Below, piece after piece: positions 39,943 to 49,685 of a DNA stretch of 64,000 nt. How positions within the stretch are numbered: position 1 is the stretch's first letter; every line of letters starts with the position of its first letter. The translations under genes were made by a program, and so were the position numbers. This stretch comes from Roseibacillus sp. (GTDB lineage: Bacteria; Verrucomicrobiota; Verrucomicrobiia; Verrucomicrobiales; Akkermansiaceae): assembly GCA_051251855.1 (NCBI GenBank), contig JBPOGI010000004.1, positions 352,001-416,000 of the forward strand, in the 5' to 3' direction. The notes under the pieces are model-generated. The model was given only the letters and a program-made list of their open reading frames with translations, had not been told where the DNA came from and ran no database searches.

Positions 39943-41121
39943 TCACTCCGCAAAGAGTCGAAACGCCACCCCCAGCGGAGCAGCTTCCTCATCGTCCCAG
40001 CGAAAATTAAACTCTGCCGCCCCACTCCGCTGACCCACCGCCACAACATCGAACCGAGTGAAATTCTCTTGAGCTAGGTCGTATTCCAAACGCCCAAAAA
40101 CCGTCGGCTCAAAAGTCTGTCCTCCCCCTTCAAGACGAGACACACCCCGCAACTCGATGACCTGTTTTCCACCTTCACGCGACACCTCCCTCACCGTCCA
40201 ACTCCCCTCTCGAAAATACTCTTTTCCTGCATTGCACTGCCCACGCGCACAATCCTTCAACGCCTGCTGCGAAATCTTCTTCACCAAAGATTGCGGCAAG
40301 GTCTTCGTCTCCCCTTTTGCCACTCGAAACAAGTCCACTTCTTCTCGTTTCAAATCAAGGAACCCCAAGTTCACCGGTCGTTGATTCCTCTCTGTATGCG
40401 GCAATCGATTCTCGCCACGTGGCAAATCTCGATACCCCAACTGCAACTTCAACCCACCCTTTTTCGGTTCTGCCCCCACAAAAAATGGCAGCTCATTTTC
40501 GGGCACGGCCTTCATCGCCTCTCCCCGCTTTCGGAATTCTAACAACGCCTTTTTCAGAATCTCAATGGTCCGGTCTCGATCCACCCACGCAAAACCACCC
40601 GCCAGATACTCTCCCTCCGCCGTCATACAGTAGGTCCCCTGGCAAGTAGCAGGCTTCTCCGGAATCAAATTATCAGGAGCATTCCGCCAATACGTCTCAA
40701 AGAGATTCGTGCTCTCAATCGTTTTCAACCACTGGCGATTAAACCAATCCGGTGGACGGAGATCCCAACACTCATCCGCCACACACACGAACTCCTGCGC
40801 CAACTTCTGAACCTGCGGGTCTGACCAGACCTCCCAGCGTCCCACGATACCATTATTTCAAGTCTCCCCCGCCGGATGCCCATTCATGGCCCACAACAGA
40901 ACCGGCCGCCCCAGCTCCCGTGCCTCCTCCGCCGCAAATTCCAACTCCCGATGCCAGCGAATCTGCCGCCAAGCCAGCTCATCCCCCTTCGGAAAAATGA
41001 ACTCCTGCCACTTGCTCAAATTCTCCGCATCCACCTCAGGGACCTCCCACTTCTCGCCTGATTCCTTTCCAAAAAGAACACCCACCAACAGGAGCCAAAA
41101 AATAAGAAATCGTCTCAACAT
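39943..41121 (-). CDS. Putative selenoprotein (thioredoxin-like, SelN-like motif), in-frame TGA at 40858-40860
   Basis: ORFs 40858-41121 and 39943-40845 are in one frame: ...LLWAMNGHPAGET-TGA-NNGIVGRWEVWSDP...; 392 aa with signal peptide if read through. Confidence 0.75.
40815..40838 (-). promoter_or_regulatory. Candidate bacterial SECIS hairpin
   Basis: mRNA GGUCU-GGUC-AGACC stem-loop; G-initiated apical loop begins 31 nt after the UGA. Confidence 0.5.
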
Positions 41122-41370
41122 CTCATCACCTTAGCTAACCCCGATTTTCGTTCAAGTGAAGAGCGCCGCCACAATCCCTCGGCAGGGATGCCCTCTCACC
41201 TTTCCTAAACCACCACAAATAACCTCGCGCTCTTCCCTCTGCCCATTATGATACTAATCATTCGACTGTCAGGAAAATCATCACTCTTGTTTTGCGGGGA
41301 AACAGATAGCTCCCCCAAACCCCAACCGCTTCTTCCCATAAAATCGCGCATCTTCCTTAGCCTTACCTGC

Positions 41371-43566: not shown

Positions 43567-43768
43567 TCCCTCTGTAGGCGCGACAAGACGCGGAGCTGCG
43601 TTGGTAACAACGCGGGCGGGATGGACTTCGATGCGTGAGCAGCCCGCTTGCTCACAAAAGCAGCTCCGGTGCACGGCAACGGTATCAACCCCGGCGGCAA
43701 TAAACGCTCCAGTCAAATTCTTCACTTCAACGTTGGACGTTCGGCGTTCGATGTTGGACGTTCTCCCC

Positions 43769-44160
43769 ATGCCTTTCGAACTTGCCAGTGACTACGAGCC
43801 AGCCGGCGACCAGGCCCAGGCCATCGCCAAGCTCACCAAGTCCATTGAGGCCGGCAACAAGCACCAGACCCTCCTCGGGGTCACGGGCTCGGGCAAGACT
43901 TTCACCATGGCGAACGTGATCCGGAACATCGGCAAGCCGACCCTGATCATGTCGCACAACAAGACCCTCGCGGCTCAGCTCTACTCCGAGTTCAAGAACT
44001 TCTTCCCCAACAACGCGGTCGAATAATTCGGCTACTACCAACCCGAGAACTACATCCCGCGCTCCCACATCCTATTCGCAGCCAAAAAGTTCGTCACCAA
44101 TAGCAACAGACTGAAGGACTCGGTGCGCGCCATTAAAAAAGAGTGCGCCGAACAAGTAGG
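43769..44160 (+). pseudogene. uvrB: Truncated uvrB 5' duplicate
   Basis: First 85 codons identical in protein to 47487 copy, TAA at 44024-44026, then degenerate fragments (YYQPE.YIPRS; H..F.AK.FVT...AIKKECAEQV) with internal deletions. Confidence 0.9.
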
Positions 44161-47289: not shown

Positions 47290-47361
47290 AACAGCGTTCA
47301 AATGAAGGAATGCCAGCGCAACCAACTCGGCGGTGCCATCTACATCCTGAATCGGCAGTAG
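47290..47361 (+). pseudogene. Duplicated 3' end of the L,D-transpeptidase-like gene
   Basis: NSVQMKECQRNQLGGAIYILNRQ* versus NSGQVKQYQRNQLGAAIYILNRQ* at 38174-38245 (72 nt, colinear). Confidence 0.85.
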
Positions 47362-47373
47362 CTGGAAGGATGA

Positions 47374-47429
47374 CCTCGTCCTATCCAACCACAGGCCAAA
47401 AATCCGACGGCAATAAAAGCCGCCGCTCC
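47374..47429. repeat. Right half of MITE/REP-like element (near-copy of about 38296-38351)
   Basis: CGTCCTATCCAACCAC(A/T)GGCCAAAAATCCGAC..CAATAAA..CCGCCGCTCC shared. Confidence 0.8.
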
Positions 47430-47486
47430 GTCAAATTCTTCACTTCAGCATTGGACGTTAGGCGTTCGATGTTGGAAGTTCTCCCC

Positions 47487-49685
47487 ATGCCTTTCGAACT
47501 TGCCAGCGACTACGAGCCTGCCGGCGACCAGGCCCAGGCCATCGCCAAGCTCACCAAATCCATTGAAGCGGGGAACAAGCACCAGACGCTTCTGGGAGTC
47601 ACGGGCTCGGGCAAAACCTTCACCATGGCGAATGTGATCCGGAACATCGGCAAGCCGACCTTGATCATGTCGCACAACAAGACCCTCGCGGCTCAACTCT
47701 ACTCCGAGTTCAAAAACTTCTTCCCCAACAATGCGGTCGAGTACTTCGTTTCCTACTTCGACTACTACCAACCCGAGGCCTACATCCCTCGTTCAGACAC
47801 CTACATTGAGAAGGACTCTTCCATCAACGAGGAAATTGAACGAATGCGCCTCTCCACGATGGGCTCCGTCCTCACCCGCGAAGACGTCATTGTGATCGCC
47901 TCCGTCTCCTGCATTTATGGTTTAGGCAGTCCCGATGATTACGAAAGCGCAATGCTTCCCGTCTGGGTCGGCAAAGAAATCGGCCGCGACGAATTCCTCA
48001 AAGAGCTCGTCAACCTCCTCTTCGAGCGCAACGACATCGCCTTTGGCCGTGGCAAATTCCGCGTGCGGGGCGACGTCGTCGAGATCCATCCCGCCTACCT
48101 CGACGAGACCGCTATCCGCGTGGAATTCTTCGGCGACGAAATCGAACGCATCTCCAGCATCGACTCTCTGCGCGGCACCGTCATTGACCGCATCGAGTCC
48201 CACACCTTCTTCCCCGCTAAGCAGTTCGTCACCGACCGCGCCAAACTCAAGGACGCCATGCACGCCATCAAGAAGGAATGCGCCGAGCAGGTGGCTGCCT
48301 TCGAAAAGGCAGGAAAACTCATCGAAGCCCAACGCCTCAAGATGCGCACCGACTACGACCTCGAGATGATGGAGGAGATGGGATTCTGCCAAGGTATTGA
48401 GAACTACTCCCGCCACCTCACCGGCCGCCCACCCGGCGCTCGACCCTACACCCTGTTAGACTTCTTCGCCTCCAAGGACTTCATGCTCATGGTGGACGAG
48501 AGCCACGTCTCCATCCCTCAAATCGGCGGCATGTATGAGGGCGATCGCAGCCGCAAGACCGTCCTCGTCGACCACGGATTTCGCCTCCCCAGCGCCCTCG
48601 ACAACCGCCCGCTCAGATTCCCCGAATTCATGGAACAGACCATGCAACGTCTCTACGTCTCCGCCACTCCCAAGGTCTTCGAACTCGCCAACTCCCGACC
48701 CGACAACCACAGCTACCTTGACATCAAACGCCAAGCCCAGGAAAGCGGCCTCGACATTCTCACCTTAAAAAAGATGAAAGTCCGCACCAGCGGCAGCGAC
48801 GAATCCGTAGAAGACTTCGACCCCACCAAGCGCAGCACCCCTCTCGTAGTCGAACAAATCATTAGACCTACTGGACTCCTCGACCCCATCCTCCACCTCA
48901 AGCCCCTCAAAGGCCAAATCGACGAAACCATCGAACTCTGCCGCCAACGAGTCGAAAAAAACGAGCGCGTCCTCGTCACCACCCTCACCAAAAAAACCGC
49001 CGAAGACCTCACCGACTACCTCGTTGGAGTCGACCTCAAGGTGCGCTACCTTCACTCCGACATCGACGCCGTCGAACGGGTCGAAATCCTACGCGCCCTC
49101 CGCGCCGCCGAGTTCGATATCCTCATCGGCATCAACCTTCTCCGCGAAGGACTCGATCTCCCCGAAGTTTCCCTCGTCTGCATTCTCGATGCCGACAAAG
49201 AAGGCTTCCTCCGCAACGAGACCTCCCTCATCCAGACCGCGGGCCGCGCCGCCCGCCACGTCAATGGCGAGTGCGTCCTCTTCTGCGACAAGATCACCGA
49301 CTCCATCCAAAAACTCATCGACGTCACCGAATACCGTCGCGCCAAACAACAGGAATACAACGAGAAGCACGGCATCACCCCCCAAAGCGTGATCCGCAAA
49401 GTGCAAGAGAGCCTCCACACCTACGACGAGACCGCCAGCAAAGGTCGCAAAATCAACGCAGGACTCGTCGCCGAGGACGACATGCTTTACAACGTCACCG
49501 AGGTCCTCAACGAACTCGAAGGCGAGATGCAAGAAGCCGCCAGCAAACTCGAATTCGAACGCGCCGCCCACCTCCGCGACCAAATCAAACAGCTCAAAGA
49601 AAAAGCCGGCCTCACCGACAAACCCCGTCCTGACAAGTCAGTCACCTTCAAAAAGCCAAAGGCCAAACGAGCAAAAAAGAAGTAA
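47487..49685 (+). CDS. uvrB: Excinuclease ABC subunit B
   Basis: [50 protein letters not shown]-terminal UVR (FERAAHLRD). Confidence 0.98.
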   Translation: MPFELASDYEPAGDQAQAIAKLTKSIEAGNKHQTLLGVTGSGKTFTMANVIRNIGKPTLIMSHNKTLAAQLYSEFKNFFPNNAVEYFVSYFDYYQPEAYIPRSDTYIEKDSSINEEIERMRLSTMGSVLTREDVIVIASVSCIYGLGSPDDYESAMLPVWVGKEIGRDEFLKELVNLLFERNDIAFGRGKFRVRGDVVEIHPAYLDETAIRVEFFGDEIERISSIDSLRGTVIDRIESHTFFPAKQFVTDRAKLKDAMHAIKKECAEQVAAFEKAGKLIEAQRLKMRTDYDLEMMEEMGFCQGIENYSRHLTGRPPGARPYTLLDFFASKDFMLMVDESHVSIPQIGGMYEGDRSRKTVLVDHGFRLPSALDNRPLRFPEFMEQTMQRLYVSATPKVFELANSRPDNHSYLDIKRQAQESGLDILTLKKMKVRTSGSDESVEDFDPTKRSTPLVVEQIIRPTGLLDPILHLKPLKGQIDETIELCRQRVEKNERVLVTTLTKKTAEDLTDYLVGVDLKVRYLHSDIDAVERVEILRALRAAEFDILIGINLLREGLDLPEVSLVCILDADKEGFLRNETSLIQTAGRAARHVNGECVLFCDKITDSIQKLIDVTEYRRAKQQEYNEKHGITPQSVIRKVQESLHTYDETASKGRKINAGLVAEDDMLYNVTEVLNELEGEMQEAASKLEFERAAHLRDQIKQLKEKAGLTDKPRPDKSVTFKKPKAKRAKKK

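Follow-up and report, generated by a model that had tools for sequence, protein, structure and literature searches.

An uncatalogued and widespread bacterial selenoprotein family that appears to be a permuted sister lineage of the SELENON core

A stretch of 64,000 nucleotides of Roseibacillus sp. (contig JBPOGI010000004.1), referred to here as the window, was analysed. Its minus strand from 41121 to 39943 almost certainly carries one selenoprotein gene that gene callers have split, and this gene belongs to a real, uncatalogued and widespread selenoprotein family. Taken as a whole, the evidence makes it likely that the product is one exported two-domain selenol oxidoreductase and a permuted sister of SELENON. 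The features of the gene are listed in Table 1.

Table 1. Features of the selenoprotein gene and its surroundings (window positions)
Feature	Position	Strand	Remarks
Whole gene, 392 aa, Sec at 88	39943..41121	-	annotated as an 87-aa plus a 279-300-aa ORF
Signal-peptide-like N-terminus, aa 1-18	41068..41121	-	hydrophobic segment, Kyte-Doolittle window
Thioredoxin-fold domain, aa 49-201, DsbD-gamma/DsbH/DUF255/ERp19-like branch	40519..40977	-	
In-frame UGA, putative Sec88, just before helix 89-98	40858..40860	-	register of the N-terminal (attacking) Cys of CxxC
Arg95 (Sec+7)	40837..40839	-	invariant in alignment A1; common to the SELENON-type set, 15/15
SECIS core hairpin GGUCU-GGUC-AGACC	40818..40831	-	loop 31 nt after the UGA; extended stem 40842-40809
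C-terminal beta-sheet domain, aa 224-389	39955..40452	-	matches the domain preceding the Trx/Sec domain in SELENON; hhalign and AF2 element order
Sigma-70-like promoter match, 10/12	41245..41272	-	consensus match only, ~125 nt upstream
Weak ribosome-binding-site-like AAGGUG ahead of the ATG	41127..41132	-	sequence only

The original prediction held that two ORFs, listed separately by the ORF finder as 87 and 300 amino acids, are one gene joined by an in-frame UGA. The translation agreed with this: a single frame of 392 codons and a final TGA was found, with one internal TGA at codon 88, after which AAT AAT GGT ATC GTG follows in frame. This TGA is intact in contigs from two other studies, one of which shows 29 differences at other places; this rules out an assembly error. 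Protein databases hold the halves only, apart from one full-length match (P0014), and every family gene examined here was annotated as two hypothetical proteins. The closest named homologue of the read-through protein in the protein search was from Roseibacillus persicicus (67%). A hydrophobic N-terminal segment was present in 22 of 26 aligned rows by the Kyte-Doolittle window, and two sigma-70-like matches were seen where 0.6 were expected. The selenoprotein gene is solitary, flanked by a nuclease-domain gene in convergent orientation and a PMP-repeat gene in divergent orientation, and no recurring gene neighbourhood pointing to a substrate was found among the family loci compared. Elsewhere in the window, a UvrB-like helicase gene was recognised by eye at 43601-44068 and 47310-49685; its first part occurs a second time, as a fragment, some 3.7 kb upstream, and both copies come after a PMP-repeat or similar surface-protein gene.

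Homologues were inspected for Cys or TGA at the Sec column. Of 61 related genomes, 18 gave a match to the read-through protein, and 31 of the 32 places among the matches listed had exactly one TGA. TGA stood at the Sec column in 28 of 29 non-self aligned loci (about 19-67% identity), and the single aligned locus without it was a different Trx-like protein; the family members among these 29 loci carried TGA throughout, and TAA or TAG never occurred. A scan of GTDB was performed with a family motif in which the column was left free as TGN, so that TGC, TGT and TGG were equally allowed. It gave at least 120 loci, with TGA in 120 of the 120 matches listed, although a motif built from TGA-bearing members could overlook distant Cys forms. 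The 80 titles among these listed matches came mostly from Planctomycetota and Verrucomicrobiota, and also from Armatimonadota, Latescibacterota, Marinimicrobia and Gemmatimonadota. The frame remained open for 296-374 codons past the TGA in 66 of the 72 loci where it closes, and ended early in the other six. No Cys form was found at the Sec column among the 120 listed motif matches or the 31 + 30 protein matches, in searches that favour close subfamilies; one Trp was seen, in P0014. Up to about seven copies were present per genome. Three to seven divergent TGA-containing copies were observed in each of G052, G056, G049 and G042, two of them on one contig in G056 (C200). In some proteins (L013, L014, P0030 and P0188-P0193) an extra N-terminal domain of about 170 aa precedes the Trx domain, and its carriers are mostly GET-type.

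The distribution of the family follows the selenocysteine machinery. Among the 61 genomes, selA was matched in 30; 17 of these selA-positive genomes had full-length TGA-bearing members (E < 1e-30), and the 31 selA-negative genomes had none, giving three weak Trx-only matches without TGA. This co-occurrence is partly circular, since 16 of the 17 positive genomes supplied alignment A1 and related genomes are not independent. The Roseibacillus genome itself carries selA, selB, selD and tRNA-Sec (selC, anticodon UCA), each over the cut-off, so that all four genes looked for were present, and its selD also contains an in-frame TGA. A crude scan of this genome (G000) returned further TGA-joined candidates at C8:303832+, C11:42440+, C1:1584111+, C1:1812084+ and C6:712145+; a minus-strand frame on C1 was found besides. 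Their kinds were peroxiredoxin-like (U-x-x-C), two thioredoxin-like (W-U-P-P-C), a VPGU-family gene that immediately follows selA, an HMA-like protein, and a Trx7-like protein with G-V-F-U-P-G (the C1 minus-strand frame). Several have similar G-initiated hairpin loops, and these additional genes are probable unannotated selenoproteins. A tRNA array of ten genes was also observed at C10:114076-115599, and a second tRNA at C1:686953-687039, unusually long (87 nt), was called Trp-CCA by ARAGORN.

A SECIS-like hairpin with its loop 31 nt after the UGA had been proposed from the DNA alone, and it stood up to the comparison of family loci. Bacterial SECIS elements are described in the legend of Fig. 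2 of PMC13188914 by a loop of 3-9 nt, a stem of 4-16 bp with G in the first two loop positions, a spacing of 16-37 nt and an MFE of at most -7.5. The hairpin here, with a loop of 4, a stem of 5, GG, 31 nt and -13.5 kcal/mol, agrees with all four published criteria in that legend. Its folding energy was not above that of shuffles (z -0.08 to -1.09 in four folding windows); the support for the hairpin is comparative. The UCU-GGUC-AGA core was invariant in 10 of 10 GET-type loci, and the next pair (28-39) was G-C in four of them, A-U in four, G-U in one and mismatched in one. In 141 de-duplicated family loci, synonymous codons showed a strong skew over nt 13-39 past the UGA (for example, CGT in 77 of 139 against 0.13 expected) and beyond that only sporadically, with p-values that are overstated because of kinship among the loci. 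Outside the GET group, most members seem, from their sequences, to use another hairpin register nearer the UGA.

The AF2 model of the read-through chain (pTM 0.84) consisted of a thioredoxin domain and a C-terminal beta-sheet domain, with the UGA falling after strand 1 and ahead of the active-site helix in a single Trx fold, so that Sec takes the nucleophile position. This model and the signal-peptide-like start fit the earlier proposal of a thioredoxin-fold protein that would be exported. Gly was found at Sec+3 in 139 of 149 sequences and Arg at Sec+7 in 147 of 149. The motif of the window protein is GET-U-N, without a neighbouring Cys. The original prediction of a single Sec with no vicinal Cys thus described this protein and its same-genus relative correctly, but it is not typical of the family: G-C-[TV]-U was found in 110 of the 120 listed motif matches, C-U occurred in 9 of the 29 aligned loci, and a Cys stands at -4 in the majority of the other GET members. 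C-x-U is the commonest form in the sequences compared, and the Cys-less site is read from them as a derived state of this lineage.

A resemblance to the Sec domain of animal selenoprotein N (SELENON) had also been suggested. To obtain SELENON-type sequences for comparison, 56 loci were fetched from metagenome contigs by a degenerate motif scan. They included intron-free SELENON-type frames with a signal anchor, an EF-hand-like loop, a middle domain and a C-terminal Sec domain, as well as prokaryote-looking genes with the same order as SELENON. The label SELENON rests on the motif, on features described in PMC12839072 and on the Atlas name of the cluster nearest the ORF of one bacterial locus, L188 ('Putative selenoprotein n 1 (Fragment)'). 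When the Trx domains of 92 family rows and 10 animal-type rows were aligned by hhalign, the probability was 91.3 and E was 9.4e-7, with Sec on Sec. However, the family Trx profile gave 19-30 bits on other Trx7-like proteins of this genome versus 3.5-21 bits on animal or protist SELENON-type sequences. Because these other proteins score as well, the Trx resemblance alone is not specific to SELENON.

The specific link was found in the C-terminal beta domain, which flanks the Trx domain on the other side from its counterpart in SELENON and had no place in the original prediction. Shallow profiles of 10 to 20 rows gave probabilities of 0.6, 1.9 and 11 between this domain and the SELENON pre-Trx domain. 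The SELENON profile was then deepened by the best 150 of 670 representative hits, which cover the SELENON-order bacterial family together with eukaryotic SELENON. The match reached a probability of 85.1, a score of 42.9 and E 6.2e-6 over 124 columns (153 rows), and in a second version with 87 short rows a probability of 88.4, a score of 44.9 and E 2.8e-6 over 131 columns. As controls, the reversed profiles scored 15.7 and 16.1, the best of 25 block shuffles 28.7 and 26.7, and cross-domain pairs 12 and 17, so that the match exceeded 50 of 50 shuffles. It is colinear and takes in the helical insert and the G-x-x-W turn beyond the meander, at an identity of about 8-9%. Plain HMMER was weak on this domain, giving at most 13.8 bits and more than 5 bits in 12 of 155 sequences versus 1 of 155 reversed. 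The family and L188 domains were also compared by the element order of their AF2 models (pLDDT 94.6 for L188); both read E-H-E-H-e-H-E-E-E-E...E, with one extra hairpin in L188. Hence, both domains are quite probably homologous to those of SELENON, with Trx-Sec followed by beta in this family and beta followed by Trx-Sec in SELENON.

In a tree of 54 Trx-domain rows, eukaryotic SELENON-type rows grouped with bacterial SELENON-order proteins, while 29 of 32 family rows formed a separate group (94/85) apart from SELENON; deep forks are open in this tree and several branches are long. Since the tree sets the family apart and joins SELENON to the SELENON-order bacterial proteins, the family seems, from sequences and models, to be a permuted sister lineage of the SELENON core, neither its orthologue nor its direct source. 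A locus with a third architecture, L028:733-1971 (-), has a TGA-containing Trx domain, a more SELENON-like loop (KLDEEFC-U-ANG) and a different C-terminal region.

Like SELENON of animals and some algae, the family has a Trx-fold domain, which we infer to be extracytoplasmic here also; Sec stands in it at the same register after a long loop, with Gly or Ala at +3 and Arg at +7. It would likewise possess a second beta-sheet domain, as judged from profile and predicted element order, and it is mostly Sec-only, as reported for algal SELENON in PMC7539508. Besides the swapped domain order, it differs in its motif, GET-U-N or G-C-T-U-N against the SCUG of SELENON (PMC12839072), in an 18-aa hydrophobic start that leads straight into the Trx region instead of a long signal anchor, and in a bacterial in-frame SECIS. 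A Pfam match to an EF-hand was not found in the window protein.

The bacterial SELENON-order proteins (Poribacteria/Planctomycetes; L188, L177, P0033-P0039) resemble the family in being bacterial, split at the Sec column and built of the same two domains. They differ in having SELENON's own order and an LDD[QE]SC motif (83 of 155 sequences end so), in including a few Cys-type forms (P0156, P0185), and in grouping with eukaryotic SELENON, to which they are closer. Members were observed at L188:601-1899 (-), L177, L197 and P0033-P0039, with many short matches among P0040-P0187. A doctoral thesis reportedly studied a Poribacteria SelenoN, with SELENON's own order. The SELENON-order family was not recognisable in the inventory of 119 families in Table 1 of PMC13188914.

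Proteins of the VPGUxxT models (NF041382, NF041383) and the Trx7/PDZ selenoprotein (NF041199) belong to the same Trx7-like branch, and VPGU has the same Sec register. Unlike the present family, they have a short loop and a UxxC/T or CxxU motif, and the family scored 12-23 bits on these models against cut-offs of 275-350, on the Trx part only. The DsbD-gamma, DsbH, DUF255 and ERp19-AGR domains are Cys-based (CxxC or CxxS); their matches were limited to residues 46-202, leaving the beta domain outside.

We infer Sec incorporation in vivo, export, reductase chemistry and a role for the beta domain as follows. SelB bound to the hairpin 31 nt downstream would deliver Sec-tRNA to UGA88, and the signal peptide would export the product, which may work outside the cytoplasm as a two-domain selenol oxidoreductase. 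Sec88 would occupy the attacking position of a thioredoxin CxxC, where Gly replaces the resolving Cys and the invariant Arg follows one helix turn on. The selenolate would most likely attack disulfides or oxidised cysteines of an extracytoplasmic protein partner, probably held by the curved beta-sheet domain. Most members have a neighbouring Cys (C-x-U or C-U) with which Sec would form a selenenylsulfide; in the Cys-less lineage, resolution would fall to an outside thiol or a distant Cys, for which C160 and C165 at the start of strand 162-166 of the model are candidates. The analogy is the redox activation of SERCA by SELENON (PMC12839072). A thiol-reductase role is fairly likely.

Three other explanations were weighed against this reading. 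It is hardly credible that the UGA is a true stop, of two genes or a pseudogene, or a Trp codon in a variant code, even though the databases contain mainly the two halves and P0014 shows a Trp here. A stop would cut one Trx fold just ahead of its active-site helix, the codon is always TGA in the aligned family loci, never TAA or TAG, and the link to selA is strict. Translation of the gene itself ends at a TGA, which shows that this genome uses the codon as a stop. As for P0014, it shares 78% identity with a locus that has TGA at the column, and its Trp is most simply taken as an automatic code-4 gene call. Sec88 could serve mainly as a metal or metalloid ligand (extracellular sensing or scavenging of Hg, Cu or As) instead of as a disulfide reductase, as the missing resolving Cys at +3, the C-x-U and C-U motifs of metal-binding selenoproteins in Table 1 of PMC13188914 and the HMA-like TGA candidate of this genome might suggest. 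This is quite improbable: Sec is predicted where a Trx fold canonically has its catalytic residue, this lineage does without the adjacent Cys, and metal-resistance neighbours do not recur.

A less distant possibility, still unlikely, is that the exported selenoprotein belongs to the wider Trx7/VPGU-like group and carries an unrelated beta-meander domain as a fusion, its likeness to SELENON being generic or convergent. The family Trx profile gave 29.8 bits to a TGA-containing Trx7-like protein and 18.7 to VPGU, as high as to SELENON-type sequences; 8 of 21 members had weak NCBIfam matches to VPGUxxT models, the VPGU protein and L028 lay near SELENON on long branches of the 54-row tree, and beta-domain identity is low. 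The colinearity of the beta match over 124-131 columns through insert and turn, its margin over every shuffle and the agreement in element order argue against a fusion to an unrelated domain, and chance is unlikely to have put the partner domain of one Sec-Trx family beside a related Sec-Trx domain. A two-domain selenol oxidoreductase related to SELENON is therefore the reading that we prefer.

None of 22 read-through proteins passed an NCBIfam or Pfam cut-off, including those of the VPGUxxT, Trx7-PDZ, TsoC and TsoX models. Table 1 of PMC13188914, with its 119 prokaryotic selenoprotein families, contains none named SELENON-like or with this motif when compared by names, motifs and model identifiers. 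According to PMC12013277, its method can miss selenoproteins without Cys homologues, and this may be why a family with at least 120 GTDB loci could not be recognised in the inventory. A bacterial SELENON was not found in the literature covered, most subscription journals and theses lying outside that coverage, and no SELENON entry surfaced in PDB searches.

We lean towards the view that a large, apparently Sec-obligate exported family of Planctomycetota, Verrucomicrobiota, Armatimonadota and several other phyla is a circular permutant of the SELENON catalytic core and that, together with the SELENON-order family, it shows that this two-domain module arose and diversified in bacteria before it passed to eukaryotes. 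The chemistry of SELENON is described in PMC12839072 mainly by analogy with the thioredoxin-reductase motif. Mutations in SELENON lead to congenital myopathy. If the relationship is true, the family offers a soluble bacterial stand-in for finding SELENON's reaction, and a soluble two-domain bacterial protein would open its structure, substrate trapping and the roles of the beta domain and of the Sec+7 Arg to direct tests.
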